Source of the DNA: a bacterium | GTDB taxonomy: Bacteria; SZUA-182; DTGQ01; JBLIRR01 | Direction of reading: 5' to 3' | NCBI GenBank assembly: GCA_049472395.1 | Contig: JBLIRR010000037.1 | Coordinates: forward strand, 20-64,019 | Length of the DNA: 64,000 nucleotides | Shown: positions 3,925 through 36,688 of the stretch, in pieces | Position numbering within the stretch: position 1 is the first letter of the stretch | How the letters are laid out: each line of letters opens with the position of its first letter | Made by a program: the position numbers and the translations under genes | Notes under the pieces: model-generated | Databases searched by the model: none | Told to the model about the DNA's origin: nothing | The model's input: the letters and a program-made list of their open reading frames with translations, nothing else

Positions 3925-4199
3925 GCAACAATCCCTTTAATAAATCAAAACTAAAATTAGATAATTCTTATTTAGGATATTATTCTACCATATATTTTAA
4001 TAGGCATACAATCATCCAGCAATCTAATTTTGACTTTTGTATTCCTCCCTTATGTTATATGCATAAAATGAGAACCTTTACACAATTGTAACTAAAAAAT
4101 TACAGTTGTGTAATTAGATTTAAAGTAAAAAGATACCGATAAATAGATAAGCTAGAAAAATAAATGGGCGTGCGTTTAATAAGTGTAGTGAGTGCATTA

Positions 4200-4215
4200 T
4201 GGCACTGAAAATGCT
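4200..4215 (+). promoter_or_regulatory. Possible sigma-54 (-24/-12) promoter upstream of the exbB cluster
   Basis: TGGCAC-tgaaaa-TGC has the GG and GC elements at the exact consensus spacing of TGGCAC-N5-TTGC, with one mismatch in the -12 box. It lies about 65 nt upstream of the exbB ATG. Confidence 0.3.
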
Positions 4216-4278: not shown

Positions 4279-4920
4279 ATGTTTTCTTTATTAAAAAATG
4301 GGGGGTTTTTCATGTATATCATTCTGGCGGTTTCCATTGTCGCGCTGACTTTATTTTGTGAACGTATTCTATTTCTTTATGTGCGCCTTAAACTCAATAC
4401 GGACAAAGCATTACAAAAAATCCTGTTTTTCCTTGAAAAGCTGAATTATCGGGCAGCAATAGAGGAATGTACAAAGATAGAAAAACATCCTCTCGGCAGA
4501 ATCTTAAAGGCAGGGCTTTTAAAATCGGATAAAAAGGACAAAGAGATTGAACGTGCAATGGAAGAGAAGATTTTGAGGGAAATTCCTTTAATAAAGACAA
4601 GAATCAATTATTTGGCTCTTTTTGCCAATATTTCAACACTTTTGGGGCTATTAGGAACGATTATGGGTCTGATTACCGCCTTTCAAGGGGTAAGCAGTGC
4701 CAGCGCCGCCATGAAGCAGGAAATATTGGCAAGCGGTATATCAGTAGCAATGCTTACTACTGCTTTTGGTTTAATTGTTGCCATACCCTGTCTCATAGGC
4801 TATTACATCCTCAATAATAGAGGGGATTATCTAATCGACCAATTTGAGGAGAAGGCCCTCAGTCTCTTTAATATGCTCTCATCCTTAAAGAGAGAAAAAG
4901 GAGCGTTATGTCAAGATTAG
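4279..4920 (+). CDS. exbB: MotA/TolQ/ExbB-family proton-channel protein
   Basis: Three TM helices. Conserved TolQ/ExbB C-terminal block ...LALFANISTLLGLLGTIMGLITAF...AMLTTAFGLIVAIPCLIGYY. Strong RBS AAGGAGGGGG. Confidence 0.85.
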   Translation: MFSLLKNGGFFMYIILAVSIVALTLFCERILFLYVRLKLNTDKALQKILFFLEKLNYRAAIEECTKIEKHPLGRILKAGLLKSDKKDKEIERAMEEKILREIPLIKTRINYLALFANISTLLGLLGTIMGLITAFQGVSSASAAMKQEILASGISVAMLTTAFGLIVAIPCLIGYYILNNRGDYLIDQFEEKALSLFNMLSSLKREKGALCQD

Positions 4921-5411
4921 GAAAGCAACGGTCAAAGGGTATCGAGGAAATTGATATTGATATGGTCCCTATCATGAACATGTTTCTGGTGCTTATTCCG
5001 TTCTTGCTCATGTCTGCTGCTTTCTTTCATCTGAGAGCTATTAATACATCAGTCCCTGTGCTTGCTGAAGGCAAGGAAGGAGCCATTGGAAAAGCAGAAG
5101 AAAAGGTCACTGTGATTGTCGAAATAAAGGAAGATGCCCTTCACTTATCAACCATATCAGACTCAGTAAATGATATTGCGTTAAGTAAATTGGAAACCAG
5201 AATAGTCAAAGAAAAAGAGGATGAATATCCCCTCGACAAAATGGTTTTATGCCTCAGGAAAATCAAGGAAAGTTATCCGGCAAGCGATACGCTTATTTTA
5301 ATCCCTGACGGAATAGTACTCTATGAAACCATTATTCAAACAATGGATGTGGCTCGACAAACTGAAGAGGGACCTCTTTTCCCTAATGTAGTAATTTCAG
5401 GAAAAGTATAA
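4908..5411 (+). CDS. exbD: ExbD/TolR-family biopolymer transport protein (first of two)
   Basis: N-terminal block IDIDMVPIMNMFLVLIPFLL is the ExbD/TolR signature (single TM, conserved Asp). Overlaps the exbB stop, indicating an operon. Confidence 0.8.
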   Translation: MSRLGKQRSKGIEEIDIDMVPIMNMFLVLIPFLLMSAAFFHLRAINTSVPVLAEGKEGAIGKAEEKVTVIVEIKEDALHLSTISDSVNDIALSKLETRIVKEKEDEYPLDKMVLCLRKIKESYPASDTLILIPDGIVLYETIIQTMDVARQTEEGPLFPNVVISGKV

Positions 5412-5425
5412 AAGGAGTAACGCAC

Positions 5426-5911
5426 ATGGCACTTGGCAAGTTAAGGAAACGAAGGCAATTCGTGGCGCCTAAGCTTCAGATTACCTCAATGATGGATATG
5501 TTTACTATCATATTGATATTCCTCCTGTTCTCTTTCTCAAATAGGCCAGAAAGCATTCAATTTAATAAAGATTTAAAATTGCCCGAATCAGAAGCGAAAA
5601 TGGATTACAAGGACAATATAAAACTCATCCTCTCACGCTCGACTCTTCAATTGGAAAATAAAGTTGTTGCTGAAATAAAAGAGGGCAAAATTATAGGACT
5701 TAATCCGAGAAAGCTCAAGCAATCCAATCTCTATAGAGAACTCAAAGCCTATAGAAAGCAGGCAGATGCGTCAAACACTGATAAGGAGAGCAAAGAGGCG
5801 ATTTTATTTCTCTGCGATAAACGCCTCCCTTTTAAAACAATAAATAATATAGTCAAAACAGCAGCTATGGCAGGATTCCCTAATTTTCAATTTGGAGTAT
5901 TGAAAAAATGA
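5426..5911 (+). CDS. exbD: ExbD/TolR-family protein (second paralog)
   Basis: QITSMMDMFTIILIFLLF is the ExbD/TolR TM signature. The arrangement of one ExbB with two ExbD mirrors AglR/AglQ/AglS-type motors. Confidence 0.75.
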   Translation: MALGKLRKRRQFVAPKLQITSMMDMFTIILIFLLFSFSNRPESIQFNKDLKLPESEAKMDYKDNIKLILSRSTLQLENKVVAEIKEGKIIGLNPRKLKQSNLYRELKAYRKQADASNTDKESKEAILFLCDKRLPFKTINNIVKTAAMAGFPNFQFGVLKK

Positions 5912-6219
5912 AGTATGTAATTATTACCCTAATATTTATGTGTGCTGTGCAGTTTCCCCTGACATACACTGGAATACACTATGGTTCTGCATATGCGAAG
6001 AGTCAAAAACAGCAGAACACAAGCGAGAAGAATTTGCTCAATCGGATTGATTTTGGCAATTCATACATTATCGGACAAACGATAAAATCAGGGGCAGTCT
6101 ATCTTCTGCAAAGGAAAAAAAGTGAGATTAAAAGCATGCTCAAGTATCGCGAAGATTATCGCGAGGAGATTCTGGAAGATTTCTCCATTATTGACATGAA
6201 AATAAAACAAAAAGATTAA
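5908..6219 (+). CDS. Small secreted or membrane-anchored hypothetical protein, translationally coupled to exbD2
   Basis: ATGA start/stop overlap with the preceding gene. N-terminal hydrophobic segment MKYVIITLIFMCAVQFPL. Confidence 0.4.
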   Translation: MKYVIITLIFMCAVQFPLTYTGIHYGSAYAKSQKQQNTSEKNLLNRIDFGNSYIIGQTIKSGAVYLLQRKKSEIKSMLKYREDYREEILEDFSIIDMKIKQKD

Positions 6220-6227
6220 ATAGCATA

Positions 6228-8564
6228 ATGAATCAGGAACCTCAAAAACAGGGTTATGGAAAGCATACAACGGCGGGTCCGGGTATGCCTTCCACGGAAA
6301 GCCGAAGTTATATTACACAAATCTATGTTTTTAAGGATGAAGATTACTTAGGATGGGATTGTTTTGATAAAGAAACAATTTCCATCGGCCAAAGTGGTAA
6401 TGCAGACCTTGTGCTCAGTGGTGAGAATATTGCCGATATCCAAGCTCTTCTCTATTTTAAGGAGGGTCAGATAATCGTATCTGATGAAAGCCGCGATGGG
6501 AAACTCCGCGTAAATGGAAGGTATATCAAGACATTTATGCTGGGTCCCTTGGATTTTATAACTATAGGTCCCTATACCCTAAAAATAAAGATAAAGGAAA
6601 AAGTAGCCTCTGAGGGAGAAGCTCTCCCGATCGAGCAGTATACTCAACATGAGAGAATCTCGTCAAGCAGGATGCCATACAAAGAAGCCTCAATGTTAGA
6701 AGCAGAGGGTCAAAGTATTACTGCACATCCCATTATGGAAGAGTCTCCCCCTTATGATCATGGACCACAACAACATGACACACCAACCACACCATCTGAA
6801 GCCTCCTTTCGAGAGCAACAGGTGCCTATTCCTGATAGTGTGAGCAACGAGTGTCACACGACACCTGCGTGTGAAATTAAGGAGCCAGTAATGGAAACAC
6901 CTGATATGCCTATCTCAGAGCATACGAGTCACACTCCTTGGCAACAGAAACAAGAAATAGTTCCTGAAATACAAAGCAGTGGGCCTATCATACATGAGCC
7001 TGATACACAATGGCCAACATTCTCGGTTATGGAAGAAGACGATGAGGACGAGGATGACGAGGATGATATCGAGGGAGTATTTTCCTTAAGAGGAAAATTC
7101 CTTGATCACAGGAAAAGCGAAGATGGCCCGGTGAAAGGCGAGATAATGCTCGAGGTTGCAAAATTCAGGGGAGACAGGGTCATTGATGTCACCTATTTAC
7201 ATAAAAAGCAGAAGTATTACTGCAGGGTTGAGAAAGGCCGGTTTTGCCTTGCAGAATACAAAAATAGCCACGAGTGCTATTTTTATTTTAATGATCAGTT
7301 TAAAGGGAGCGTTCATAGCAGTACCTCCCCTCAATTAGGCACTGACCAATTATTAAATATTACAAATCTATATAATAGAAGAAAAAATATATACCGGGAC
7401 CTGCTTCCAGATGATGGTGATGCATGCATAAGTGATGGATATTATGAATATTTTTTGCGAAGGGTCACTCAGGGCCAAAGCCCTTATATCCCGGATCCTC
7501 CTAAAATAAAAAATAAATTCCCTAAGATTTTACTTCAATCTGCTCTCTTTCATCTTGCTGTGGTTTTTATAGCCGGTTTTTTAGTCTCACTTCCCAAAAT
7601 GCCGGACCCCAGCCAACCTGAATCACGCTTTGTGAAAATAGATACACGAAAATTATCTGAGATTAAAAAACAACCACCACCCATCAAAAAGCCGAAAAAA
7701 AGGACTGAGGTAAAAACAGCATCAAAGAAGGTGAAGACAGCACCAAAGAAGGTGAAGACAGCCCGGAAGAAGATAAAGACACAACCAAAGCCTCAAAAAA
7801 GCGCTTCCCTTAAACTACGACCGAAAACAAATCAACCACGATCGAGAACAAGAAAGGGAAGGATCTCCCGATCACCCCGTGCCGGAGGAGGAAGCGGCAA
7901 AGGAGGGAATGTCCTCAATCGTAATGTGAATCAGGTAGGGCTTTTGGGGGCTATTGGTATGAGCGATGGAGTGGGCATAAAAGCAAAAGAAGCACTCGCT
8001 GCAGTGACGAATCTTGATGCGGTAAAATCCTCCCATGCGAGTGAGGGAACTCTCAAGGTTGGCGGTATTGTGGGCAAACTAGGAAACGGCCAGATTGAAA
8101 TACCGAAGGCTGGCCTTGTGTCAACAAAGGGTTCGTCACAGGCCCTCAGAAGTGCCGGTGTGAAAGGAAAAGGGAGTGTTGCGGCCCTCGCAAAAGGAAG
8201 GACAGGACAAAAACAAGTAAAGGGCATGGTGAGTGCAAAACTTAATAGATCAGTGAATATACAGGGCGGAGGGATGAGCCGTGAAGCGGTGAAAAGGATC
8301 ATTGATCAGCATCTTGACGAAATAAGTTATTGCTATGAAAGCGCGTTGATTGCCGATCCCTCTATTATGGGAAAAATAGTATATGAATGGAAAATCTTAC
8401 TCTCGGGAAAAGTGGGAGAGATACGAATCAAAACCTCCTCGATTAAATCAAGCGACATCCATTCATGTATCAAGCAAGCGATAAAAAGCTGGCAGTTTCC
8501 AAAACCTAGAGGCTCGGAAGTCATTGTTTCATATCCGTTTATTTTCGATATCGTAGGATTTTAA
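6228..8564 (+). CDS. FHA-domain / single-TM / Lys-Pro-rich / TonB-C-like (AgmX-PglI-type C-terminal domain) energy-transducer-like protein
   Basis: Residues 40-120 have the FHA fold pattern (...ISIGQSGNADLVLSG...VSDESRDGKLRVNGRYI...). These are followed by an acidic run DEDEDDEDD, one TM helix ILLQSALFHLAVVFIAGFLVSL, and a Pro/Lys-rich periplasmic spacer with KKVKTAPKKVKTARKKIKT repeats. The C-terminal about 90 aa (EAVKRIIDQHLDEISYCYE...GKVGEIRIKTSS...IKQAIKSWQFPKP...VSYPFIFD) has the layout of a TonB-C/AgmX-PglI-type domain. Confidence 0.7.
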   Translation: MNQEPQKQGYGKHTTAGPGMPSTESRSYITQIYVFKDEDYLGWDCFDKETISIGQSGNADLVLSGENIADIQALLYFKEGQIIVSDESRDGKLRVNGRYIKTFMLGPLDFITIGPYTLKIKIKEKVASEGEALPIEQYTQHERISSSRMPYKEASMLEAEGQSITAHPIMEESPPYDHGPQQHDTPTTPSEASFREQQVPIPDSVSNECHTTPACEIKEPVMETPDMPISEHTSHTPWQQKQEIVPEIQSSGPIIHEPDTQWPTFSVMEEDDEDEDDEDDIEGVFSLRGKFLDHRKSEDGPVKGEIMLEVAKFRGDRVIDVTYLHKKQKYYCRVEKGRFCLAEYKNSHECYFYFNDQFKGSVHSSTSPQLGTDQLLNITNLYNRRKNIYRDLLPDDGDACISDGYYEYFLRRVTQGQSPYIPDPPKIKNKFPKILLQSALFHLAVVFIAGFLVSLPKMPDPSQPESRFVKIDTRKLSEIKKQPPPIKKPKKRTEVKTASKKVKTAPKKVKTARKKIKTQPKPQKSASLKLRPKTNQPRSRTRKGRISRSPRAGGGSGKGGNVLNRNVNQVGLLGAIGMSDGVGIKAKEALAAVTNLDAVKSSHASEGTLKVGGIVGKLGNGQIEIPKAGLVSTKGSSQALRSAGVKGKGSVAALAKGRTGQKQVKGMVSAKLNRSVNIQGGGMSREAVKRIIDQHLDEISYCYESALIADPSIMGKIVYEWKILLSGKVGEIRIKTSSIKSSDIHSCIKQAIKSWQFPKPRGSEVIVSYPFIFDIVGF

Positions 8565-8577
8565 GGAGTATGTAGTT

Positions 8578-9294
8578 ATGAAAAAATGGTGCATGTTTTA
8601 TATTATTATCATATTGCTTTTCATTACTGCTGTCAGAGGTTATGCAGCCGAGGATGCGGATAAGGATGAGCGCGTCTATGCTATACAAAATAAAGTCTTT
8701 CATCGCTATCATGAATTCGGCATAACCGCGGGCTACATTCCTGATGATGACTTTTTTGAGCTTTTTCCACTGGGTATTAATTACATTTTTCATTTTAATG
8801 ACCATTTTGCATGGGAAGTCGCCCGGGGTTATCTGGTAATGAAAGAAGAGAAGGATATTAAAAAGGACCTTGAAAAAGAATTTGGAGTCACACCATCAGA
8901 ATTCAGCAAGCCGAAATATATTGTCCACAGCCATCTTGTGTGGAAGCCTATGTATGGGAAAGACTCCATACTGAATAAGGGCGTTGTCAATCATGAGAGT
9001 TATTTTTACTTTGGAGGAGGGATGATAAGCTACGAGAGGCTTACGCTGCCTGGTGTGGATAATGCGCTCTCCCTGAGCGCCGGTTTTGGTATACGATATT
9101 TTATAAATAAATATACATGTATAAATTTTGAAATCCGTGACCTGGTTAACTTTAAGGAAGATGATACGGAAAATAATCTCTGGTGTGCCCTCTGTTTGGG
9201 ATTCCGTTTTAATTTGAGAGCACGAAAACCGGAAGATAATCCCACAATAAAGATATTAAACCACTATTTAAGAGAAGATGAAAATGAGAATTAA
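8578..9294 (+). CDS. Outer-membrane beta-barrel-like protein
   Basis: Signal peptide MKKWCMFYIIIILLFITAVRGYA. Alternating aromatic/hydrophobic strands (...LSLSAGFGIRYFI...LCLGFRFNL). Confidence 0.5.
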   Translation: MKKWCMFYIIIILLFITAVRGYAAEDADKDERVYAIQNKVFHRYHEFGITAGYIPDDDFFELFPLGINYIFHFNDHFAWEVARGYLVMKEEKDIKKDLEKEFGVTPSEFSKPKYIVHSHLVWKPMYGKDSILNKGVVNHESYFYFGGGMISYERLTLPGVDNALSLSAGFGIRYFINKYTCINFEIRDLVNFKEDDTENNLWCALCLGFRFNLRARKPEDNPTIKILNHYLREDENEN

Positions 9295-10747
9295 ACACGC
9301 AACCTGTGCTCTTATTTTCATATGGCTCCTCTGTATTGCCACGAGGGGCGACGCCATAGGTCCTGATCCTAACTCAAATGATCCCCTTTCATTTACAACC
9401 GGCTATAAGCTCTTTGAGAAAAAGAAGTTTGAGAAGGCGTGCCCTCACTTTTTCCGCTATATGAGTGTCAATTCCCCTGATATTGTAGATTATGAATGGG
9501 CGGAGTTTTTTTTCGGGATTTGCTTGAAAAAATGCGGCTATTCACATGCTGCTGTGGATATTCTCGCGCATCTGGTAACCCGAAAGCCCAATACAAAAAT
9601 CGTCTCATACTGCCTTGAGCTTTTTGAAGAAATCACCCGCACCCAGCCCTTTGATAATGAGCTTATTATTCATAGTGTGCTCTGTGACCAGGAATATGGA
9701 TTTGTGAATGAAGAGATTGGAGACTTTATCAACTTTTACCAGGGGGTCTATGACTGGAAACATGGCTTTTTCGAATGGGGAAATGAGCATTTTAAGAATA
9801 TTACCCCGGAGGGCTATTACTTTTATAAATATCTCTATCATAAAGCTCTCTACCGGGTATATCAGGATCACATTGATGATGCGATTGCCCTTCTAACCAA
9901 GATTTTAGAGGGCCCTTCTGAGGAAAAAGCGTTAAAAGACGATGCACGAAAAACATTGGCGCGCCTCTTGTATGAAAAGAAAGAGTATGATAACTCTGCC
10001 CTGAACTACCAGAAAATTACCAAATCTATTCTAGACCAGGCACAAAATCTTCTCGAGCGGGCGTGGGTCCAGTACCGTTTGGGATACTCAGAGAAGGCTA
10101 TGGGCTTGCTCTATGCCTTTGAGGCGCCGAGTTTTCAAAATTATTTTACACCTGAATATTTTATCTTAAAATCGCTTATCTATAAAGATGTATGTCACTA
10201 CAAACGGGCTTTGGATGTGGTCAAGGAATTTAACAAATATTATGGCGACTCGCTTGAGTCTATCTATAACCGCGGAAAAGCCGTTGACAATCCGGCCCTT
10301 TTATTGGTCCTTCTCAGTAAAAATCAGATCAATAAGACATGGAAATTGCTCCGTCTCGTTGAAAAGGAAAAGGAGAAATGCGCAGAATTCAAGAAAAAGG
10401 AGAAAGCTCTTTACGATTATCTTCTGAAAATATATGATCTGCAGATTGAAGAGAGCGCCGATTCTCTGAAAGAGCAGATAGAAAAAGAATTTGAAAAGAT
10501 TGCCAATACACTTTTGCAGTATGAAGAAGAGGCGCACCTCATGGAATATGAGATTGGAATTGATATGTATCAAAGGGTCTATCAATATCATTACTCTGAG
10601 GATAACACAAAAAAGAAAAAAGCAGGAGAGAAAATCGCGGTGTATCCCTTCCAGGGAGAATTCTGGAACAATGAATTGGCAGACTATAAGGTTACACTCC
10701 CGAATAAATGTGAATGTATCGAAGAATGGGACATATTTTTTCAATGA
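9278..10747 (+). CDS. Secreted TPR-like helical-repeat protein (GltE/AglT-like size and position)
   Basis: Signal peptide. About 480 aa of helical repeats with TPR-like Y/A/L spacing. Charged coiled C-terminus. Confidence 0.6.
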   Translation: MKMRIKHATCALIFIWLLCIATRGDAIGPDPNSNDPLSFTTGYKLFEKKKFEKACPHFFRYMSVNSPDIVDYEWAEFFFGICLKKCGYSHAAVDILAHLVTRKPNTKIVSYCLELFEEITRTQPFDNELIIHSVLCDQEYGFVNEEIGDFINFYQGVYDWKHGFFEWGNEHFKNITPEGYYFYKYLYHKALYRVYQDHIDDAIALLTKILEGPSEEKALKDDARKTLARLLYEKKEYDNSALNYQKITKSILDQAQNLLERAWVQYRLGYSEKAMGLLYAFEAPSFQNYFTPEYFILKSLIYKDVCHYKRALDVVKEFNKYYGDSLESIYNRGKAVDNPALLLVLLSKNQINKTWKLLRLVEKEKEKCAEFKKKEKALYDYLLKIYDLQIEESADSLKEQIEKEFEKIANTLLQYEEEAHLMEYEIGIDMYQRVYQYHYSEDNTKKKKAGEKIAVYPFQGEFWNNELADYKVTLPNKCECIEEWDIFFQ

Positions 10748-10766
10748 TCTTAAGAAACAATGTGAT

Positions 10767-13700
10767 ATGAGAAATACTATGAGAGGAAAAAAATTCTTAC
10801 TTTTACTATGTGCGTTTCTTATTCTCTCTCTGCCGATATCTTCCTCTGGTGCAAAAAAGGGACAGAGTTTCAAGGTATATCAATATGAAAAAAAGGACAA
10901 GGAAGAGGAGCAGAAGAAATTTATTGCCAAGCTCACAGAGGATAAGCAGAAGATAGAGATGGCCATTAAGAACACCAAGGCCCTGATTGATAAATCACGT
11001 GACAGGCCCTATCTGCCGGAGATTTATATTCGTCTTGCAGAGCTGTATATTGAAAAATCGCGTATTGTGTATTTTCTGCGTAAAACCCAATCGCCCAGTA
11101 CAGTAAACGCATTGAACTTTCTCGAATCTAACTCCTTGAAAAACCAGGCAATAGAAATCTATCAGCGCATATTAAACGATTTCCCGAAATTTGAGGAACG
11201 GGATAAGATCCATTTCTATTTGGCGCATGAATATAGAGAGCTTGCTGAGATTGATAAAATGGTTGAGCAATACAGGATAATTATTAAACAATATACACAC
11301 AGCTCCTATGTACCGGAGTCGTTCTTACTTTTAGGAGATTATTTCTTTGATAAGCAGGACCTTGAGATGGCAACTAAACATTACGAGGCTGTGCTTAAAT
11401 ATCCTGAAAGCTCTGCAATTGCTATTGCCCGTTATAAACTGGCATGGTGTCATATAAATGAGGCAGACTTTAAGAAGGCCCTTACGCTTTTCGAAGAATC
11501 GGTTCTCAGCGCACAGCCGGGTAAAGAACTGGATGTTGACACATATAAGAGAGTTGATATCCGGCTTGAATCACTTATCGACATGGCATACTGTTACTGT
11601 GAGGTTTATAAGGATGCAAAACCTGAGCAGGCAATAGCCTATTTTCAAAAATTTGCATGGTCAAGGCCGGTATACACCACTGTGCTTGAAAAACTCGCCT
11701 ATCGCTATCTGCTCAAAAAAAAGTGGAAAAAGGCTGCGGCAATCTATCGCCAGTTATCGATACTGCAGCATGATGTAGAGAAATTGTTGGAATATGCCCG
11801 CAAAATCTTTGAATGCGTCCAGTCTTTAGAAAGCTTTGAGGATGCGGACCAGGACATGGCAATCATTATCAAGGCGCTTCGCAAACAGAAATATTCCATA
11901 CATATACCTGAAGAAGAGAAAAAGAAAAACCTCAAAGACTATGAAATGTATGCGCGGGATATCGTCACGCACCTTCATCATAAGGCACGACATGCAAAAT
12001 CAAAAGAAGTCTTTAAGCGGGCTGCGGACTCTTATAAATTATATCTGGATTTTTTTAAGACGAGCCCGGTATACAAGGATATGGAAGCAAACTATGCTGA
12101 AGCGCTTTTCTCCGCACAAGAATATATGGAGGCGGGTAAACAATATGAAAAACTGGCTCTGAGAGAAAACGCACACAGTAAAAAGAAAAGGGAAGATCTC
12201 TATAGCGCTGTCCTTTCCTATTATGCTGCGCTTAAAAACAAAGAAAACCTCAATTACTATCAGATTGCTTACACACGAGCAGGCCTTCGGACAACGGGGA
12301 AAACTTATGCTGTAGAGTTTCCCAAGTCAAAGCAGGTGCCCAATGTCCTTTTTAATGTGGCATGGATCGCCTATGATGCGGGCAAGTATGATGATGCAAT
12401 TGCTGAATTCTCCCAGTTTGTCGATCGCTATCCCAGGGGCAAAGAAGCAAAGGCTGCAATTCATCTCATCCTTGACGCATTTCATCTTAAAGAAGATTAT
12501 GAGGGCCTCGTCACTTACGGACAAAAAATCCTCAGGAATAATAAAATTACTGATAAAAAAATAAGGGCCGAAGTAGCAGAAATCGTGAAGTCAGCTGAAT
12601 CAAAAGTGATATGCAATCTCACCTTGAATGCGGTAAATGACTGGGAAAGGGGCAAAGACAATATTATGGATTTTGTCGAACAGCATGCATCCTCCTCTAT
12701 GGGAGAGCAGGCCCTTGTTGCGCTTATTCTCCCGAGCAAGGAGAAGGGGGATTTAGAGACCATGATTTCCGCAGGCACTACCTTAATCAAAAATTTCCCC
12801 TCCTCCCCGAAAATCGAAGACACATTGAATATCATTATCGACTCTTCCCTTAAAAGCTCTCAATTCAGGCTCCTCGCACAATATCTTGAAGTTTTCGGGC
12901 GTAAGCTGAGAAAACATAAGAACGCGGTAAGCTTTCTTTATCAGGCTGCCCAGATCAGGGAAAATCTTGGCCAGTATGATCTTTCAAATAAAGATTATAA
13001 GCTGATTCTCACACGCGTTAAAAAAGGAAGCCCTCTGCATGGTGAGATCATACTTGCCATGGCGCATAATGCAGAGCACATGTCGAATAATAATCTCGCA
13101 CGTGGCATTTTAATCAACAACAGAGGCTATCTTTCATCCACAGGGAAAATAAAGGCAGCTGCCAAAATTGCGGATTACTATTTTCAAGATAATCGATATA
13201 AACAGGCCGAACGATTCAGAAAAATAGCCAATGGAGGGTATACACCCTCTATGGCAAAAAAGGATAGTGAGATTAATTCTGCAATGGCTCAAATGGAGTA
13301 TAGTGCTCTTCAAAGATCAAATAGGAGATATATGAAGCTTCAATTAAAGGATCATATAGATAATCAAATCGTCACTGCCAAGGCGAAGCTTTTAGAGCAC
13401 CTGGAAAATGGATATCATACAGTGATTAAATACCAGGTGCCTGAATGGGCGCTTAATGCCTGCTACCGCCTCTATGAAGTAAACAAGGAATTTGCCCGTT
13501 TTCTGAAAGAGAGCCCACTTCCACAATTGCCCCCTGAGCAGGAAAAGCAGTATGTGGAGCTTATCAATCAAAAGGCTCAGGGCTATAACGATCAAGCAGA
13601 GCAATATTTAAAGACGAGCGTTGAGCAAGCGCGAAAATGGGAAGTATGCGATCCTAAGCTTTCGCAGTATGTCATAAATCCATCAGAAGGCTCCCGCGCA

Positions 13701-14189
13701 ACTCCTTTTTCAAGAAATAATGCATCAATTAAGATCGGAATCCAATTCCTCAAAGATGATGTGTTAAAAAGGATGCACTATAAGCTGCTGCAAGGCTCTG
13801 ATAATATGAATTTGTTAAGTGATCTTGCAAAGGCATATATAGAAAGAAGAGATTTCAGGCAGACCATCCTTATCGCTCAAAAAGCATTGGAAGAGATAAA
13901 AGCCAAAAAAGACCCTTTAAAGGCAACAGTCTATAATTCATTGGGAGTAGCGTATCTTTATAAGGCTGATGATACCATGGCCAAGGATGCCTTTAAAAAG
14001 GCCCTTGATATCGACTCAAAAAATATCGGGGCACGGATTAATCTTGCAAGTCTTTATCAACATTATGGTCATAGAGATAAAGCGAAAAGTCTTTATAAAA
14101 CCCTTCCAAACAGTGGAGTGGTGGAGGAATCAGAAGAGATGATTCATCCCCACGCACGGGAGTTATATTATGCCTATATCAATGATTAA
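10767..14189 (+). CDS. Large secreted TPR-repeat protein (about 1140 aa; GltD/AgmU-like)
   Basis: The ORF track's start at 10491 overlaps the upstream gene. The in-frame ATG at 10767 (or 10779) gives a signal peptide MRGKKFLLLLCAFLILSLPISSSGA. Numerous TPR units follow (e.g. ...AIARYKLAWCHINEADFKKALTLFEES..., ...ATVYNSLGVAYLYKADDTMAKDAFKKALDIDSKN...). Confidence 0.7.
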   Translation: MRNTMRGKKFLLLLCAFLILSLPISSSGAKKGQSFKVYQYEKKDKEEEQKKFIAKLTEDKQKIEMAIKNTKALIDKSRDRPYLPEIYIRLAELYIEKSRIVYFLRKTQSPSTVNALNFLESNSLKNQAIEIYQRILNDFPKFEERDKIHFYLAHEYRELAEIDKMVEQYRIIIKQYTHSSYVPESFLLLGDYFFDKQDLEMATKHYEAVLKYPESSAIAIARYKLAWCHINEADFKKALTLFEESVLSAQPGKELDVDTYKRVDIRLESLIDMAYCYCEVYKDAKPEQAIAYFQKFAWSRPVYTTVLEKLAYRYLLKKKWKKAAAIYRQLSILQHDVEKLLEYARKIFECVQSLESFEDADQDMAIIIKALRKQKYSIHIPEEEKKKNLKDYEMYARDIVTHLHHKARHAKSKEVFKRAADSYKLYLDFFKTSPVYKDMEANYAEALFSAQEYMEAGKQYEKLALRENAHSKKKREDLYSAVLSYYAALKNKENLNYYQIAYTRAGLRTTGKTYAVEFPKSKQVPNVLFNVAWIAYDAGKYDDAIAEFSQFVDRYPRGKEAKAAIHLILDAFHLKEDYEGLVTYGQKILRNNKITDKKIRAEVAEIVKSAESKVICNLTLNAVNDWERGKDNIMDFVEQHASSSMGEQALVALILPSKEKGDLETMISAGTTLIKNFPSSPKIEDTLNIIIDSSLKSSQFRLLAQYLEVFGRKLRKHKNAVSFLYQAAQIRENLGQYDLSNKDYKLILTRVKKGSPLHGEIILAMAHNAEHMSNNNLARGILINNRGYLSSTGKIKAAAKIADYYFQDNRYKQAERFRKIANGGYTPSMAKKDSEINSAMAQMEYSALQRSNRRYMKLQLKDHIDNQIVTAKAKLLEHLENGYHTVIKYQVPEWALNACYRLYEVNKEFARFLKESPLPQLPPEQEKQYVELINQKAQGYNDQAEQYLKTSVEQARKWEVCDPKLSQYVINPSEGSRATPFSRNNASIKIGIQFLKDDVLKRMHYKLLQGSDNMNLLSDLAKAYIERRDFRQTILIAQKALEEIKAKKDPLKATVYNSLGVAYLYKADDTMAKDAFKKALDIDSKNIGARINLASLYQHYGHRDKAKSLYKTLPNSGVVEESEEMIHPHARELYYAYIND

Positions 14190-15546
14190 AAAAAACAGCA
14201 GAATTTTTATCTGTCTCTTTGCCATGATCATTTCTCTGCACCTCCTTTGTGGCTGTGGGGGAGAAACTGGGGATACAGGTGACACAAGCACCCAGGGAGA
14301 CACGTCCTCTGAAGGCTGGCAACGCTGTATAGTAAAAGATATTGATGCAGGAGGTATGCTCGCCCCTCATATTCATGCGGCAGCAGATAGCAATGACCGC
14401 GTTCATGTTGTCTATTTTTGCGATACCGATGAAAGCGATGATGAGAGCAATCCCTATACAGTTCATTATCTTCTTTTCGATATAGCGGCCGCACGCTCCG
14501 GAGCAGAGGACGCGAACACAGTGCTTGCAGAGGAGACCATTATCGATATAGATAATTGCAGGGATCTTTCATTTGTCCTTGATAGCACCAATACTCCGCT
14601 TGTGGCCTATCGGGGAGGTGAGCTGCGAGAGTGCGGTTCACCGCAGCAATCAGATGCCATGTTCAGTCTCAAGGAAAATACGAGCTGGACAGAATATACC
14701 GGCGCAATAGGCGATGTTGAGAGAAATCCGGTATTTACCGATGGGCTTGCGGGCGCTGATACCTCGGTTGCCTTTGACTCTACCGGTGATATTCATCTGT
14801 GCTATCAATTCTTCTATGAAGGGTGTGATTCAATGAACTATAACTACCCAGACCTGTGTTATGTGAAAAAGGAGCGTTCATCCCTCACCACCAGTGCAAC
14901 CGAGGAGACAGTCGAGGGGAATGTGTATAATGAAGCAGGCACTGTTGCCCTAGAGCAAAATTCCATGGGTAAATATTGTGCGATCACAACAGATGCAGAG
15001 GATAGTCCTGTTATCTTTTATTATGCCGAGTTTACAGAGTCAAACAGGGGGCTCCGTGTTGCGCGGCGAGGAAACAACGGGCAGTGGGAGAGTGAATGGC
15101 TTGAAGATAACTGCGAAATAGGCGCCATAAGTGCGGCACATTCTGATGCGAGCGATGATTTCGCCGTTGCTTACTATGTAAAAGAATATACTGACGGCAG
15201 CGATTTTGTGCACTGTTTAAAGTATGCCCGGGGCAATTTCTCCTCCTGGCAGACAACCCTGGTTGATGAAAGCTCCTGGTGTGGCAACTATTGCAGCCTT
15301 GCCTTTGATTCATCAGGCAATCCCGCCATTGCGTATTATGAGTATAAGACGCACAGCGGCTATGATCGTCTGAACCTTAAACTTGCCCGCTATGACGGGA
15401 CTTCCTGGAGCAAAGAAACAGTTGCTGAAAGCGGTGACATCGGCCTTTACAATACGCTCTGGTTCGATACAAATGATAGAGCGCTGATCTGTACCTATTC
15501 GAATACAACCACGACGATATATATCTATTATGAATATTATGAATAA
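14170..15546 (+). CDS. Lipoprotein with repeated beta-blade-like modules
   Basis: Lipobox LLCGCGG after the signal peptide. Recurrent beta-strand motifs (VHVVYFCDTD, PVIFYYAEFTE, FAVAYYVKEYTDG, PAIAYYEYKTH). GGGAG RBS. Confidence 0.6.
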   Translation: MPISMIKKNSRIFICLFAMIISLHLLCGCGGETGDTGDTSTQGDTSSEGWQRCIVKDIDAGGMLAPHIHAAADSNDRVHVVYFCDTDESDDESNPYTVHYLLFDIAAARSGAEDANTVLAEETIIDIDNCRDLSFVLDSTNTPLVAYRGGELRECGSPQQSDAMFSLKENTSWTEYTGAIGDVERNPVFTDGLAGADTSVAFDSTGDIHLCYQFFYEGCDSMNYNYPDLCYVKKERSSLTTSATEETVEGNVYNEAGTVALEQNSMGKYCAITTDAEDSPVIFYYAEFTESNRGLRVARRGNNGQWESEWLEDNCEIGAISAAHSDASDDFAVAYYVKEYTDGSDFVHCLKYARGNFSSWQTTLVDESSWCGNYCSLAFDSSGNPAIAYYEYKTHSGYDRLNLKLARYDGTSWSKETVAESGDIGLYNTLWFDTNDRALICTYSNTTTTIYIYYEYYE

Positions 15547-15622
15547 TTTTTCTCGCAAAGAGTAATCTTTACATTACAATCATTGGATTGGAGGATGCGG
15601 TACCATGAGGGGTTCTCACAAT

Positions 15623-15662
15623 TCACTATTAAGCTCTTTCATTTTCATATGCGTGTCTATGA
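15623..15662. repeat. About 40-bp intergenic repeat, copy 1 (CACTATTAAGCTCTTTCATTTTCATATGCGTGTCTATGAA)
   Basis: Near-identical copy at 29468..29507 (CACTATTAAGCTCTCTCATTTTCATATGCGTATCTATGAA). Both copies lie in non-coding DNA. Confidence 0.6.
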
Positions 15663-16296
15663 ACGATAAGGATTTGGAAAAAGAACGTTCCATACTGCGC
15701 AAACTACAGTGGTATGATTAATAGGTATAGGATATAATCAAGGGGAGGATGTCCTGTCTTTCTTATTTAACTGATAGAAATTGCTTTTCTGAGCCTGAGA
15801 GGAATCCCATTGTTATCTTTTTGCACACTGGTTTGTAAGTGTATTTGTGGGTGCTCTCGGCTCCCATCGTTTAATTTCGCACTTATCGGCGCTCTTTTTG
15901 TTGAAAAGATGCGGGTGCGGCGCTGCAGTATTTCACAAAGGAAGATGACGGGATAAGGATTTTTGGCAGCACGTCATAGAATTTATAGGCCTTCGATTTT
16001 GGTTTTTTGGGTGGACTCAACTAATGAGAACAAAGCCCAACATCCCTGAGGTTTTCCTTATGCCTTCCCTTTATCTTTGTCCAACAGTACTTTTCAAGGA
16101 TATAAAATCTTCGTAAAACATAGCTGAAATCCATTTTTATATCTCACCAATGAATACCTGGCTCTCATATCAAAAACACTGGAATGAATCTTGTATCAAA
16201 TAATAAAAAATGGCAAGGATTGTATTCCAGAAGAGAAATGCCATTTAACTTTAAAATTAAAGTATCAAAGTATTAAAAGCAGGAATTTGCTTATTT

Positions 16297-19263
16297 ATGA
16301 ACCAGACAAATAAAAGGGCAAGACAAATGGGATGGAAGCTTATTAATAAAGGATCTAAGGAAGGCAATAGAATGGGATTCGGAGGAGGAGGAGTCTATAC
16401 CCCGCTCTTTTTATGGACAAAAAGGCTCTTAGGTGTATGCTTTTTCATTTTATCATTGCTTTTAAATCCAGTCCTAAGTGATTGTATGAAGACAAAGTTG
16501 CGGCATATAAACGAAAGAGTGAAATACTTACATCAGGATAATTATAATACTGATATTATTAAATCTAAGGCTGCCATGAATATTGATCCAAATGATTATC
16601 TCGCCCGACTTAAACTGGGAGAGATGTATTTTCAATGTGATCAACTGGATAATGCTGACAGGGAATTGCGGGAGGTCATTGAGAAAAATCCTGGAACCGC
16701 TTATGCGCATTTTTTGTTAGCATCTATTCATTTAGAAAGAAAGGAATATAAGGAGGCCCTGGCAGAGGCGAAACTTTCCCTTGAATTGGTTAAAGATGCC
16801 CACCAGGAGAGAACCGTAAAGCCTAAAAAGGCACAGGTGCAAAATCTTTTAGGTCTGATCCATATGGAGATGGAAGAACTCAATCTAGCGCGATTACATT
16901 TTGATAGTGCCATAGAGTTAGAACCAAACAATGTTCATTTTTTGATCAATCAGGGATTTCTGTTCATGGAAATGAGAAATTATAAGGATGCAAAAGGGAA
17001 ATTTGAAACGGCCCGAGATCAGGCACCGGAAGAGGCCAAGCCCTATTTGGCATTGGGGTGGTATTACTATTTTCTAAATGCATACGAGGAGGCAGAAATC
17101 CATTACCGCAAAGCGCTTGCGAAAGACCCGGATTCGCCTCAGGCTATGATCGCTTTGGGAGAAATCATGAATTGTCAGGGGCGGTTTGACAAAGCAATAG
17201 CGCAAGGAGAGATGATTATTAAAAGATTCCCTCATGATCCGTTTGGGTATCAAATAAGAGGAGGGGCATATTTAGCAGAAAATCACTATAACGAAGCAAT
17301 TTTAGACCTCTCGGAAGCTGTAAAGCTGGCTCCTGAAGCTGTGAATTCCCGTTATCTTTTAGCATTAGCTTACCACAAGATTGAGCAAAGGAATCGGAGC
17401 ATGAGATTGCTTGAGGAGGTTGTGACTCTTAATCCTGAACACAGCGCAGCGCATAAATTGCTGGCAGAATTGAATCTTGAGCTTAAGAAATACGAGACGG
17501 CTATAAAGAATGCACACAAGGCCCTTAATTTAACCCCTAATAGTCCTTATGCGCATAATATTTTGGGTCTTATTTATATGGGCAAAGGTGAGCCGGATAG
17601 AGGGATGGATGAGCTTCAAAAGGCGCTGGCGCTTGATCCTAATTTTGGCATGACCTATCAAAATCTGGCCTCTTTTCATACAATGACGGAGCGGAAGGAT
17701 TATGCCATCAAGGCATATCAATCTGTTATAGAGATAGATCCGAACAAGCTGGATTTTTATGTGCCATTAGTCTTAACCTATCTGGAGAAGAATGAATCTG
17801 AGAAAGCACGTCAGATTTGTGTGAAGGCTCTCGAATCCGGAGGCAGACAGGAGGTATTTTATAATCTCTTGGGATTGGTTTATATGAAACAGGGCACATT
17901 GGATAAAGCGAGGGAAAACCTGAAGAAGGCATTTTGCGTCAACTCTGCATTTCTCACTGCACAATTTAATCTTGCGAAACTGGACCTCATGGAGAATAAG
18001 CCTGAGGAGTCCATTAAGAGGTTGAAGAGCATTTTAGAACAGGATTCTGATAATATTAACGCGTATATCGGGTTATTAGCAATTTATTCGGAAATCGGTG
18101 CCCAAGAAGAAGAAATAAAGAACCTGCGGGCCATTCTTGAGATCGATCCGAAACACTCCTTTGCCTTTTCTCAATTGTCAAAGATTTATAGTAATAACAA
18201 AGATTTCTATTTGCTGATAAAATTGGCCAAAAGTTACATTTCCGTTGTGCCTGATTCAAGATTGGCACATACTATTTTAGGGAATGCTTATCTCGGAACC
18301 AAGAAATATGCACTTGCCATTTCTGAATTTGAAACATTGGTTAAGATAGATCCAGGGGATCTTTCTATACAAAGAGCTTTGATCTATACATACACTCTTA
18401 GCAAGGAATATGATAAGGCACACGCACTGGTGGATAATATTCTCTCTCAAGCCCCGGATAAAGCATCCGCGTTCCTAAACCACATGGCTGAGTATTTTTT
18501 AAATGATGGGTATGTCAATGAGGCTATCAATTATTATAACTGGGCTTTGAGGAAAACTCCGGGCAATGTAGAGACATATTTGGGGCTTTCATCAGCTTAC
18601 TGGATTTTAGGTCAGCCTGAAGAAGTGATTAATATATTAAAGAAAGGGATTGAAAGAATGCCTAAGTCTTTGGATTTGAGGATGTCCTTGGCCAGTATCT
18701 ATTTTGATTTAAATCAACCTGATTATGCCATAGTTCAATATCAATATGCGCTTGACAAAATAGACCCTGATAACAGTGTTGTTCATCTTTATCTGGCCAG
18801 CAGTTACATGCTAAAAAAGGATGATGAAAAGACAGAGTATTATTATAAAAGAGCTATTCAGCTCGATCCAAATAATTTTAGGGCATGTAATGACCTGGCC
18901 TGGTTTTATGCCGATAAAGGCAAAGATTTGGATAATTCGCTCATACTTGCGCAGAAAGCAGGCAGATTATCTCCCAATAATCCAGATATTATAGATACAA
19001 TTGGCTGGATATATTTTAAGATGGAAGAATATGATCAGGCTGTAAACAGATTTAAGCAAGCTAAAGCGCTAAAAGAAAATAGTCCTTCCATAAGATATCA
19101 TCTGGCATTGGTATTAAGTCAGATTGGGGAGAACGAAGAGGCCATGAATGAGTTAAATTGGGCGTTATCCATTAACCAGGATTTTTCTGAGAGGGAAGAT
19201 GCCCGGAATTTACTTAAAAAATTAAAAAAGCAAAACAAGAGCATTCAAAGTCTGAAATACTAA
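16297..19263 (+). CDS. Membrane-anchored giant TPR-repeat protein (988 aa)
   Basis: One N-terminal TM helix LLGVCFFILSLLLNPVL, then more than 20 canonical 34-aa TPR units (W/LG/Y/A/F/A/P pattern throughout). The start could also be a downstream ATG (MGWKL... or MGFGG...). Confidence 0.7.
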   Translation: MNQTNKRARQMGWKLINKGSKEGNRMGFGGGGVYTPLFLWTKRLLGVCFFILSLLLNPVLSDCMKTKLRHINERVKYLHQDNYNTDIIKSKAAMNIDPNDYLARLKLGEMYFQCDQLDNADRELREVIEKNPGTAYAHFLLASIHLERKEYKEALAEAKLSLELVKDAHQERTVKPKKAQVQNLLGLIHMEMEELNLARLHFDSAIELEPNNVHFLINQGFLFMEMRNYKDAKGKFETARDQAPEEAKPYLALGWYYYFLNAYEEAEIHYRKALAKDPDSPQAMIALGEIMNCQGRFDKAIAQGEMIIKRFPHDPFGYQIRGGAYLAENHYNEAILDLSEAVKLAPEAVNSRYLLALAYHKIEQRNRSMRLLEEVVTLNPEHSAAHKLLAELNLELKKYETAIKNAHKALNLTPNSPYAHNILGLIYMGKGEPDRGMDELQKALALDPNFGMTYQNLASFHTMTERKDYAIKAYQSVIEIDPNKLDFYVPLVLTYLEKNESEKARQICVKALESGGRQEVFYNLLGLVYMKQGTLDKARENLKKAFCVNSAFLTAQFNLAKLDLMENKPEESIKRLKSILEQDSDNINAYIGLLAIYSEIGAQEEEIKNLRAILEIDPKHSFAFSQLSKIYSNNKDFYLLIKLAKSYISVVPDSRLAHTILGNAYLGTKKYALAISEFETLVKIDPGDLSIQRALIYTYTLSKEYDKAHALVDNILSQAPDKASAFLNHMAEYFLNDGYVNEAINYYNWALRKTPGNVETYLGLSSAYWILGQPEEVINILKKGIERMPKSLDLRMSLASIYFDLNQPDYAIVQYQYALDKIDPDNSVVHLYLASSYMLKKDDEKTEYYYKRAIQLDPNNFRACNDLAWFYADKGKDLDNSLILAQKAGRLSPNNPDIIDTIGWIYFKMEEYDQAVNRFKQAKALKENSPSIRYHLALVLSQIGENEEAMNELNWALSINQDFSEREDARNLLKKLKKQNKSIQSLKY

Positions 19264-19292: not shown

Positions 19293-19553
19293 TTGTTGAA
19301 ACTGCTGAAGATAATGCCTTATCAAAAGTACAAATTTTCTTCGATCGATTCATATCGAGCGATGATTTTACACCATATGAATAACAAGACGTTATCGAAA
19401 GTAAAAAGGTGTAATTTATCCTGTGAAGCCATCGGCGCGAGGACATGCGCTGTAGATGCCTATGATCAAGAGGTGATCGACCATCTCTTAGGTATCGACG
19501 GAAAGGATGAGTTCACCATTTATCTTGCCCCTGGGGGAAAGGTGGCGACATAG
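19293..19553 (+). pseudogene. Remnant resembling the C-terminus of a nitroreductase-family gene
   Basis: The 86-aa ORF ends ...LSCEAIGARTCAVDAYDQEVIDHLLGIDGKDEFTIYLAPGGKV, which resembles a nitroreductase C-terminus. There is no room for the N-terminal two-thirds of a full gene. Confidence 0.3.
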
Positions 19554-20992: not shown

Positions 20993-21174
20993 AGTACCCT
21001 ATAAATAACTTTTCTAGGGGTATTGACAATTCGATAAAATTGATTGTTTGATTTATTGAATAAATAATTGAGTAATTAAAGTAGGTATCTATAAAAATTA
21101 TAATACATTTGCTCTGAACCATGCAACCGGCAGAGTAAAAAATAATAATAAAAAATTTTTGAAAAGAATTCATA

Positions 21175-21235
21175 TGGTCTTTTTTTGCGATTCCGATAAA
21201 AGCGATGATGAGGGCAATCCGTTTGTGCCGTGTCA
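21175..21235 (+). pseudogene. Short gene fragment paralogous to lipoprotein gene 14170..15546
   Basis: TTTTTTGCGATTCCGATAAAAGCGATGATGAGGGCAATCCG at 21181..21221 matches TTTTTGCGATACCGATGAAAGCGATGATGAGAGCAATCCC at 14414..14453. The fragment encodes VFFCDSDKSDDEGNPF and the gene has VYFCDTDESDDESNPY. Confidence 0.5.
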
Positions 21236-21350
21236 AAATTCCGTCATAAAATAATATCAATGACTTATATAGCTGCCAATATAGACTGAGAAAATTCCGA
21301 TAGATATAATGGAAATTAAAAATATTATTTAAACCATTTTAAGGGGAGTT

Positions 21351-21590
21351 ATGGATATGAACCATTTTAAGCTAATATTAAGATTATTTTTTCCCCTTAT
21401 ATTCATTTGTTTAGTTTTCCCTATAAGGGCGTATGCGTATCTTGACCTTGGAAGTGCCAGCTATCTCTTGCAATTATTCCTGGCCAGTTTATTTGCGGGA
21501 TTGTTTCTCCTGAAAATGTACTGGAGAAAAATTGTGTCTTTTATTAGAAATCGACTTTATAACAAGAGAAATGGACAAATTGAAAAATAA
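21351..21590 (+). CDS. Small membrane protein
   Basis: RBS AGGGGAG. Two hydrophobic helices (LILRLFFPLIFICLVFPI and LLQLFLASLFAGLFLL). Confidence 0.4.
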   Translation: MDMNHFKLILRLFFPLIFICLVFPIRAYAYLDLGSASYLLQLFLASLFAGLFLLKMYWRKIVSFIRNRLYNKRNGQIEK

Positions 21591-36124: not shown

Positions 36125-36688
36125 GACTTTTCTCCTTAATTTGTCTTACTCTTTATGAGTATTACATTATTTAATGTCTCGCGGCTTTAGTATGTGCTTT
36201 TTAATTTTTTATACACCCCCTTTCTGATCATACATTAATGTATCTCCTCTTTTTTTAATGTGATAAAAAGAAACTTCTGATTATTATTTTTTTCATAACA
36301 TTATTATACACCATCATACTCATTTTTACTATATTAATATTCTTATTATGTATTGACAGGAATACGCTTTTTGAGCCACTAGGATATATTATTATAAATT
36401 AATATAAATCTACTATAATTTTAAATAAAAATCCGCAGAAGGGAGATATATACTAACTATAGGTATTATGAGTACCGCAGGGATCATATTTAAGGTAGGG
36501 GATTTTAGAGATTATCAAATTCAATCTGAGATACAATAAGATGTCGGATTGGATCTATATAAGATAAGCTCAGGAAAACATAAAGGAGAGAGGCATATCA
36601 CTAAAAGAGTTAGGAGTCTGCTTCGCAAGCTTCTCTATTTTGCTTCATTGAATATGGCCAAAAAGATAAATAGGAGAAACAAAAATGC

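Follow-up and report, generated by a model that had tools for sequence, protein, structure and literature searches.

A Glt-like gene cluster with an operon-encoded ExbB/ExbD-type motor in a probable sulfate-reducer-like bacterium

Gene content of the cluster

The Glt-like gene cluster considered here occupies positions 4279-15546 of a 64-kb stretch of bacterial DNA (64,000 nucleotides), which in its whole length is referred to below as the window. It consists of nine open reading frames (ORFs) on the plus strand, packed tightly enough to form an operon-like block, which encode in order an ExbB-like channel, two ExbD paralogs, a GltF-like small protein, a GltG-like transducer, an outer-membrane barrel, a GltC-like protein, a GltD-like solenoid and a propeller-type lipoprotein. 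We consider it probable that the product of this block is a trans-envelope transducer of the Agl/Glt/Nfs family, driven by the proton-motive force (PMF), because its products match myxobacterial Glt models, those for AgmX/PglI and OMP_myx_plus above cutoff and those for GltG, GltC and CglF below. Pfam was searched with 30 ORFs of the window, and NCBIfam, the home of the Glt/Cgl models, with only the ten ORFs from which the cluster was first delimited. A sequence search of the PDB gave no match.

The nine genes are translationally coupled, with successive spacings of -13, +14, -4, +8, +13, -17, about +19 to +31, and -20 nt, and the G+C content of the block is about 0.37-0.45. All nine ORFs are intact and of family-typical length, and the signal peptides, the lipobox and the proton-site aspartate of the second ExbD are all kept. 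A tenth co-directional ORF (16297-19263, plus strand) begins 750 nt past the ninth gene, and the intervening gap (15547-16296) contains no ORF longer than 48 amino acids (aa). An initial annotation of this DNA had described ten co-directional, mostly overlapping or coupled genes. All ten ORFs are indeed present on the plus strand where it had placed them, and the coupling holds for the first nine (-20 to about +31 nt) but not for the tenth. Its list of products named nine proteins, passing over the 103-aa ORF at 5908-6219, which is GltF/CglF-like.

The first gene (4279..4920) encodes a predicted AglR-like proton channel of the ExbB/TolQ family, 213 aa long with three transmembrane (TM) segments (PF01618 MotA_ExbB, E=3.9e-30). 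Its top NCBIfam match is TolQ, at 81 bits against a cutoff of 221, and it is 58-78% identical across related loci of the Desulfobacterota type. Two ExbD/TolR paralogs resembling AglQ/S follow, the first of 167 aa (4908..5411; PF02472, E=5e-12) and the second of 161 aa (5426..5911; PF02472, E=2e-10). The combination that marks the core complex, one TolQ/ExbB-like gene with two distinct TolR/ExbD-like genes, is thus present, as had been claimed for this locus (PF01618 once, PF02472 twice). The two paralogs differ at the TM proton-binding site, where the first has Asn24 in place of Asp (Asn in 54 of 58 homologs) and the second keeps Asp24 (Asp in 58 of 58). Judging from these residues, the predicted stator would have a single protonatable site, and the difference implies that it is obligately asymmetric. 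The ExbD1 homolog of one Bdellovibrionota locus, L082, retains the Asp.

The transducer gene (6228..8564) encodes a 778-aa protein made up of an FHA domain, a second beta domain, a TM helix and a C-terminal AgmX/PglI domain. The C-terminal domain scores 106 bits against NF033768 (cutoff 40), and the protein matches the GltG model at E=2.8e-30, with 105 bits against a cutoff of 650. In an AlphaFold model built from 21 homologs, three confident domains are set between disordered stretches, namely an FHA sandwich (residues 28-124), a beta domain (300-414) that abuts the single TM helix (431-452), and an alpha/beta domain (685-773). The last adopts in the model the fold of the TonB C-terminal domain (TonB-CTD), and this C-terminus reaches 16.4 bits against Pfam TonB_C, below the threshold of 24.6. 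The cytoplasmic linker is acidic, with a net charge of -29 over residues 126-290, and the disordered periplasmic linker is Lys/Pro-rich and then Gly-rich, with a net charge of +30 over residues 471-560. In GltG of Myxococcus xanthus, an N-terminal FHA domain is followed by a second FHA-like domain next to the TM helix, then by a periplasmic segment that is disordered and an end that resembles the TonB-CTD (PMC11761067), and the modelled layout of the 778-aa protein is this architecture, domain for domain. The protein therefore unites the features by which a GltG-type transducer is recognized, an FHA domain, one TM segment, a long periplasmic linker and an AgmX/PglI end, and its initial description as an FHA protein with a TonB-C/AgmX-PglI terminus stands, both on the NF033768 score and on the agreement of the modelled layout with GltG.

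Between the motor and the transducer lies the gene (5908..6219) for the 103-aa GltF/CglF-like envelope protein, which has a hydrophobic N-terminal segment. It matches NF033764 CglF at E=3.9e-6 and 26.8 bits, under the cutoff of 90, and is 58% identical over 45 aa to the product of the same-position gene of a Myxococcaceae-type locus (L085), whose F gene itself matches CglF at 8e-10. On the other side of the transducer, 8578..9294 encodes a 238-aa outer-membrane beta-barrel of the GltA/GltB type with a signal peptide, recognized as a barrel in the initial annotation and scoring 80 bits against TIGR04565 OMP_myx_plus (cutoff 60). It shares 33% and 28% identity with the two barrels of L085, and MXAN_1329, which has the same position as this gene, has been given as a GltB homolog (PMC3169522 Table S3). 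The following gene (9278..10747) encodes a 489-aa periplasmic tetratricopeptide repeat (TPR) protein with a signal peptide that had been taken for GltE. It proves to be GltC-like instead, matching NF033756 GltC at E=9.3e-25 (87 bits, cutoff 450; residues 215-411 on model positions 319-503) and the same-position protein of L085 at E=2e-60. Neither this protein nor the 458-aa lipoprotein described below matches GltE at E<=10, and the cluster is without a GltE homolog. The gltF-like gene and the gene for the OMP_myx_plus-type barrel adjoin the G and C genes, positions that are kept in Myxococcota loci, and with these two genes the Glt content of the cluster is greater than was first stated.

The gene at 10779..14189 (alternative start 10767) encodes a predicted periplasmic TPR solenoid of 1136 aa with a signal peptide, designated GltD-like from its homologs and its model. 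The start in the ORF list (10491, TTG) is too early, and the database copy of the gene (1172 aa, start about 10671) overlaps the preceding gene by 77 nt. We place the start at 10767 or 10779, for a product of 1136-1140 aa, because of the signal peptide and because the homologs are 1130-1160 aa long. The protein matches generic TPR and YbgF/CpoB-like profiles only, and no GltD model of NCBIfam gives a hit. Its AlphaFold2 model is an all-alpha solenoid with a pLDDT confidence score of 86.6, and a Foldseek search of the PDB with this model was uninformative, returning generic TPR scaffolds only (IFT-A, Ski3, Ctr9). More than 460 clusters of homologous proteins, 1130-1160 aa in length, are 49-62% identical to it. 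Full-length homologs with 27-33% identity (E=1e-114 to 1e-165) are found in metagenome-assembled genomes (MAGs) of Myxococcota and Bdellovibrionota, including two Bdellovibrionota loci (L079 and L082; 27-29% identity), and the homolog in these phyla is the large TPR gene of Glt-like clusters. This chain of MAG homologs, together with synteny, indirectly points to a GltD-like identity, and the earlier designation of a GltD-type TPR protein of about 1140 aa agrees with the size and with the full-length homologs in Glt-like clusters. In a neighbour-joining tree of D proteins, that of the window falls inside a Desulfobacterota-type clade, joined by the Myxococcota group and then by the Bdellovibrionota, with a protein of the gammaproteobacterium Microbulbifer (P0244) as the most distant branch and the type represented by locus L086 also distant. 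A search for M. xanthus GltD that started from the homolog in a Myxococcales MAG led only to entries named 'tetratricopeptide repeat protein' and to paralog-type loci.

The last gene of the block (14170..15546) encodes a 458-aa lipoprotein with 16 cysteines that is predicted to form a seven-bladed beta-propeller. The beta-rich lipoprotein of the initial annotation is borne out by the lipobox LLCGC and by seven copies of a propeller-blade repeat (xSxAxDSxGxPxIAY), and the protein scores 33.5 bits against PF15892 BNR_4 (threshold 27.3). The gene is kept at the position after D in nearly all loci of the Desulfobacterota type. In the Myxococcales MAG locus L068, a 452-aa homolog with weak, repeat-level similarity is encoded directly after the GltD-like gene, at the position held by gltE/nfsE in Nfs/Glt clusters.

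Upstream of the first gene, a palindrome with 14-bp arms (TTACACAATTGTAA ... TTACAGTTGTGTAA) is found at 4078-4113. A sigma-54-like motif, TGGCAC-N5-ATGC, lies at 4200-4215, 64 nt before the first gene. It was rejected as a promoter, the motif being no commoner in the window than in shuffled sequences and only 3 of 51 related loci having a comparable one in their upstream DNA. Scans for sigma-70 promoters and terminators were uninformative in this AT-rich DNA.

Conserved neighbourhood and flanking genes

A scan of species-representative genomes with the D protein yielded 80 related loci, all of them from MAGs, in which ORFs were called locus by locus. D homologs with 41-64% identity are found in MAGs of the Desulfobacterales, Desulfobulbia, Desulfomonilia, Desulfatiglandales and Desulfuromonadales, as well as in MAGs labelled Nitrospirota/Thermodesulfovibrionia and 'Bacteriovoracaceae'. 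From these relatives, the host of the window is probably a sulfate-reducer-like bacterium. The closest GltD-like gene (L066, 9956-13416, 64% identity) is broken into several ORFs, probably as a result of assembly frameshifts. The label of one carrier contig (L048), Alteraurantiacibacter, is that of an alphaproteobacterium and looks like an error of binning or labelling.

The order ExbB-ExbD-ExbD-F-G-OMP-C (OMP, outer-membrane protein) is found ahead of D in 47 of the 48 close loci with enough upstream DNA, which are mostly from Desulfobacterota, and the motor is therefore dedicated to the Glt-like genes. Downstream, 42 of the 44 close loci with enough DNA on that side carry three further genes, which encode a thrombospondin type-3 (TSP3) repeat protein, a VWA+TSP3 protein and a lipoprotein of ~761 aa without a family match. 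For the TSP3 and VWA+TSP3 proteins, MtsC and MtsD/CglD are the nearest NCBIfam labels and are to be taken as nothing more than that, because all scores are far below the cutoffs. The TSP3/VWA genes are lacking in only three close loci with downstream DNA, namely the window, L045 and L056. In the window, tblastn with the TSP3, VWA and 761-aa genes gave no hit at E<=1, and the 750-nt gap holds no pseudogene remnant of them. The block in the window is thus a truncated version of a 12-gene module. Since this adhesin-like trio is missing here and a counterpart of the 988-aa TPR gene is missing from the 80 related loci, the functional unit is taken to be 4279-15546. The 750-nt gap occupies the exact position that the TSP3, VWA/TSP3 and 761-aa lipoprotein genes have in the 42 relatives.

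The tenth ORF (16297-19263, plus strand) encodes this 988-aa protein, which consists of a long TPR array. It scores 448 bits against TIGR02917, the model for the XrtA/PEP-CTERM TPR protein PrsT (cutoff 312), over model positions 7-895, a match to be read in the knowledge that long TPR arrays score promiscuously, and 136 bits against GltE (cutoff 225), well under its own PrsT and MamA scores. The initial annotation was right to call it a TPR protein, and its inclusion in the cluster does not hold in view of the 750-nt gap, the PrsT score and its absence from all of the related loci (0 of 80). It may have a loose functional link to the Glt-like cluster. Two Myxococcota loci, L068 and L085, carry a shorter multi-TPR PrsT-like gene downstream of D.

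The region beyond it (19520-24806; G+C 0.30-0.33) contains a sulfatase-family gene, a 480-aa gene without a family match and a gene for a sulfatase-plus-TPR membrane protein, and may be an acquired envelope-modification island. The sole TonB-dependent receptor found in the window (Plug and barrel; 48630-50537, minus strand) lies 29 kb from the cluster and on the other strand, consistent with the earlier statement that the cluster itself contains none. It stands beside genes for a CobT-like phosphoribosyltransferase and a CobQ-like amidotransferase, and 45272-50537 (minus strand) resembles a block for cobalamin uptake/salvage that has no relation to the cluster. The window encodes further large proteins of the surface type at 33377-38471 and 59456-64000 (both minus strand). 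Among them are a 915-aa VIT-VWA protein and an InhA-like protein with a MAM domain, and one ORF with NHL and RHS repeats, at least 1514 aa long, runs to the window edge on the minus strand.

Proposed mechanism and alternative explanations

From the gene content, domain architecture, homology and conserved synteny observed here, a mechanism can be drawn by analogy with the structural model of the M. xanthus machine, from which the protein-protein contacts, the use of the PMF and the cargo would all be carried over. An ExbB-like pentamer would enclose an ExbD1-ExbD2 heterodimer and turn proton flow into movement. The GltG-like protein would dock on this channel through its TM helix and juxtamembrane beta domain, span the periplasm with its basic disordered linker and grip the 1136-aa GltD-like scaffold with its TonB-fold C-terminal domain. 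From this scaffold, the connection to the GltA/B-type barrel and to the propeller lipoprotein could be made by the GltF-like peptide together with the GltC-like TPR protein. The machine would in this way perform mechanical work on some object held at the outer membrane, with the lipoprotein, and in sister genomes also the TSP3/VWA proteins, as the output end. In M. xanthus, both the AglR-GltG interaction and the PMF dependence of Agl-Glt and Agl-Nfs have been established by experiment (PMC3169522; PMC3858216). In sister genomes, the genes immediately downstream encode TSP3-repeat and VWA adhesin-like proteins, and these are most probably the cargo. The machine might accordingly use the PMF to move or expose adhesins at the cell surface, with adhesion, cohesion between cells or perhaps gliding as the purpose. 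In the present genome the adhesin-like genes would have been lost or relocated, the window being without them.

Several observations weigh against assigning the block to the Agl/Glt/Nfs family or against the cargo proposed for it. None of the Glt equivalog cutoffs is reached (GltG 105/650, GltC 87/450, CglF 27/90 bits), and the link to GltD is based on MAG homologs and synteny, not on the sequence of M. xanthus GltD. GltE, GltH, GltI, GltJ, GltK and CglB are absent from the cluster. The Pfam scan of 30 window ORFs, other short ORFs being unscanned, turned up neither MglA nor AglZ, and none of GltH, GltI, GltJ, GltK and CglB. The adhesin-like genes on which the cargo proposal is founded are nowhere to be detected in the 64-kb window (tblastn, E<=1), and all carriers found are MAGs, which come with no phenotype. 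Finally, the most similar M. xanthus cluster is dispensable for gliding, an insertion in MXAN_1327 having left both gliding and twitching normal (PMC3169522); a role in motility is therefore not implied.

Most of these points bear also on the possibility that the cluster is a true gliding motor, for surface movement as in Myxococcus and Bdellovibrio, which we regard as quite improbable. Luciano et al. treat carriers of AglRQS together with GltD, E, F, G, C, A and B as potential gliders (PMC3169522), and the cluster holds this set minus GltE and the second barrel. The second barrel is thus one more absence to be added to those of the Glt proteins, CglB, AglZ, MglA and the adhesin-like genes, and the dispensability of the most similar M. 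xanthus cluster for gliding points the same way. Desulfatitalea, Desulfosarcina and Desulforapulum, genera that appear among the carrier labels, are not known to glide, which also counts against a gliding motor. If the cargo were a polysaccharide, the cluster could be an Nfs-type glycan machine, its motor moving or anchoring a secreted surface polysaccharide in place of protein adhesins, with the help of the PrsT-like TPR protein and the sulfatase-family envelope genes. We consider this improbable, although the Agl-Nfs machine transports the Exo polymer around M. xanthus spores and the family is versatile in its cargo (PMC3858216). In the window the adhesin genes are replaced by the PrsT-scoring TPR gene (448 vs 312 bits) and two sulfatase-family genes, and a multi-TPR PrsT-like gene lies downstream of D in L068 and L085 as well; yet the 988-aa TPR gene stands behind a 750-nt non-coding gap and has no counterpart in the 80 related loci, its TPR similarity is generic, and no PEP-CTERM-tailed ORF is found in the window.

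Conventional nutrient uptake by an ExbB-ExbD-TonB system, or envelope maintenance by a divergent Tol-Pal system, is very improbable. The top NCBIfam match of the ExbB-like protein is TolQ, the 778-aa protein ends in a TonB-CTD fold with a sub-threshold TonB_C match, repeats of the YbgF/CpoB type occur in the large TPR protein, the cluster has a beta-propeller protein, as Tol-Pal has in TolB, and the window does contain a TonB-dependent receptor (48630-50537). That receptor, however, lies 29 kb off on the opposite strand among cobalamin genes, the equivalog scores are far under cutoff (TolQ 81/221, TolR 17/162 bits), and the Pfam and NCBIfam scans revealed no TolA, TolB, Pal or OmpA-like peptidoglycan-binding domain. 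In addition, the motor genes are joined to Glt-like genes in 47 of 48 loci, and TonB and TolA feature neither an FHA domain in the cytoplasm nor a TPR partner of 1136 aa. Neither a TonB_C domain above threshold with a receptor partner nor the Tol-Pal set is thus found in the cluster, and a canonical TonB or Tol-Pal system is unlikely. There is likewise only a very slight chance that the block is a decaying remnant, left non-functional by the loss of its adhesin genes. Of the close loci with downstream DNA, no more than two others, L045 and L056, share with the window the lack of the TSP3/VWA genes, but the nine ORFs here are intact and of family length, the signal peptides, lipobox and ExbD2 Asp are retained, and the missing genes may sit elsewhere in the genome.

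A transducer of the Agl/Glt/Nfs family thus remains our preferred reading. A broader and rather doubtful proposal, made here tentatively, concerns the 12-gene module as a whole (motor, F, G, one barrel, C, D, propeller, TSP3, VWA/TSP3 and 761-aa lipoprotein), as found in Desulfobacterota, Nitrospirota-labelled and related MAGs. It might be an undescribed 'adhesin conveyor', widespread in anaerobes and near the ancestral form of the myxobacterial gliding machine, that powers surface movement or PMF-gated cell-cell cohesion, and it would include gltF and gltA/B, genes supposed to be specific to Myxococcales and Bdellovibrio. On that view, the window copy would be a variant naturally devoid of the adhesins, which may have been re-coupled to another cargo. 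The role of Glt-like core machines in non-gliding bacteria has been an open question since 2011. The group described here is large and tightly conserved (more than 460 GltD-like protein clusters, 80 genome loci), gltF and gltA/B-type genes extend in it beyond the Myxococcales and Bdellovibrionales, the motor can share one operon with the transducer, and the usual genetic partners are adhesin-like surface proteins. The wide range of gltF and gltA/B, the operon-encoded motor and the adhesin-like partners together yield a concrete, testable hypothesis about the cargo, whose practical value is limited because every carrier is a MAG and the window copy is without the adhesin genes.

Relation to known systems

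The cluster shares with the Agl-Glt gliding machine a motor with a 1:2 ratio of channel to plug genes, the domain plan of GltG, GltF-, GltC- and GltD-like proteins and a GltA/B-type barrel. It differs in scoring below every equivalog cutoff, in having one barrel instead of three, and in having an extra propeller lipoprotein and an Asn at the proton site of ExbD1. The parallel with the Glt/Nfs core drawn in the initial annotation accordingly stands for the motor and the GltG and GltD types, and falls for GltE, which has no match, and for the 988-aa TPR protein. The same Agl motor also drives the transport of the Nfs spore-coat polymer, and such versatile surface transport machines exist in many configurations in deltaproteobacteria (Wartel et al. 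2013; PMC3858216). With the ExbB-ExbD-TonB and TolQ-TolR-TolA systems, the cluster has in common the motor family, a single-pass transducer, an extended periplasmic linker and an end with the TonB-CTD fold; unlike them, it has a cytoplasmic FHA domain, two different ExbD paralogs and dedicated TPR, barrel and lipoprotein partners, and is without a receptor, TolB or Pal partner.

The nearest relatives of every window protein outside the Desulfobacterota are found in three Myxococcota loci, L068, L083 (from an Archangium-labelled MAG) and L085. The genes of these loci run F-G-OMP(-OMP)-C-D, TSP3-type genes are nearby and no motor gene is found within 10 kb, and their proteins are regarded as paralogs of the motility genes because they fall below the GltG and GltC equivalog cutoffs. 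The proteins of the window resemble this type far more closely than the Bdellovibrio-like A-B-C-D-F-G-motor type of L086, as is seen in the F protein (58% identity to L085, 24% to L086), the C protein (E=2e-60 vs E=3e-10) and the barrel (E=3e-33 vs E=4e-9). A described cluster of similar arrangement exists in M. xanthus, where MXAN_1331 (F-like, 162 aa), MXAN_1330 (FHA, GltG-like, 749 aa) and MXAN_1329 (GltB-like, 246 aa) are accompanied by MXAN_1328 (GltC-like, 538 aa) and MXAN_1327 (GltD-like TPR, 1089 aa), and no GltE is present (PMC3169522, Table S3). With the same content and order as the window, a single barrel and no GltE in either, MXAN_1331-MXAN_1327 is the closest described counterpart, and the order and sizes of the genes suggest orthology. 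Whereas the motor genes of the Myxococcota F-G-OMP-C-D loci lie elsewhere, in the window the motor heads the operon.

Outside the myxobacteria, a seven-gene core of aglRQS, gltD, gltE, gltG and gltC has been described in gamma- and betaproteobacteria, Geobacter and Fibrobacter, where its function is unknown, and gltF, gltA and gltB were found in the same 2011 survey only in the Myxococcales and Bdellovibrio (PMC3169522). Like that core, the window combines the motor with GltG, GltC and GltD in one locus, in organisms not known to glide; the core has gltE and is without gltF and gltA/B, and in the window the reverse is the case. The expanded core of Bdellovibrio (e.g. Bd0828-0838) also unites the motor with A, B, C, D and G at a single locus, in the different order A-B-C-D-G-motor and with much lower identities to the window. 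The initial annotation was therefore correct in placing a cluster of this type outside the myxobacteria, which in itself is not new, core clusters having been published in 2011 (PMC3169522) and 2013 (PMC3858216). Because such Glt-like cores were already known, the locus is a further example of a described type. To that type it adds a lineage, since no Desulfobacterales-type organism is in the 2011 list, a combination of gltF-like and gltA/B-type genes without gltE, a motor encoded in the same operon, and conserved propeller and adhesin-like partners.

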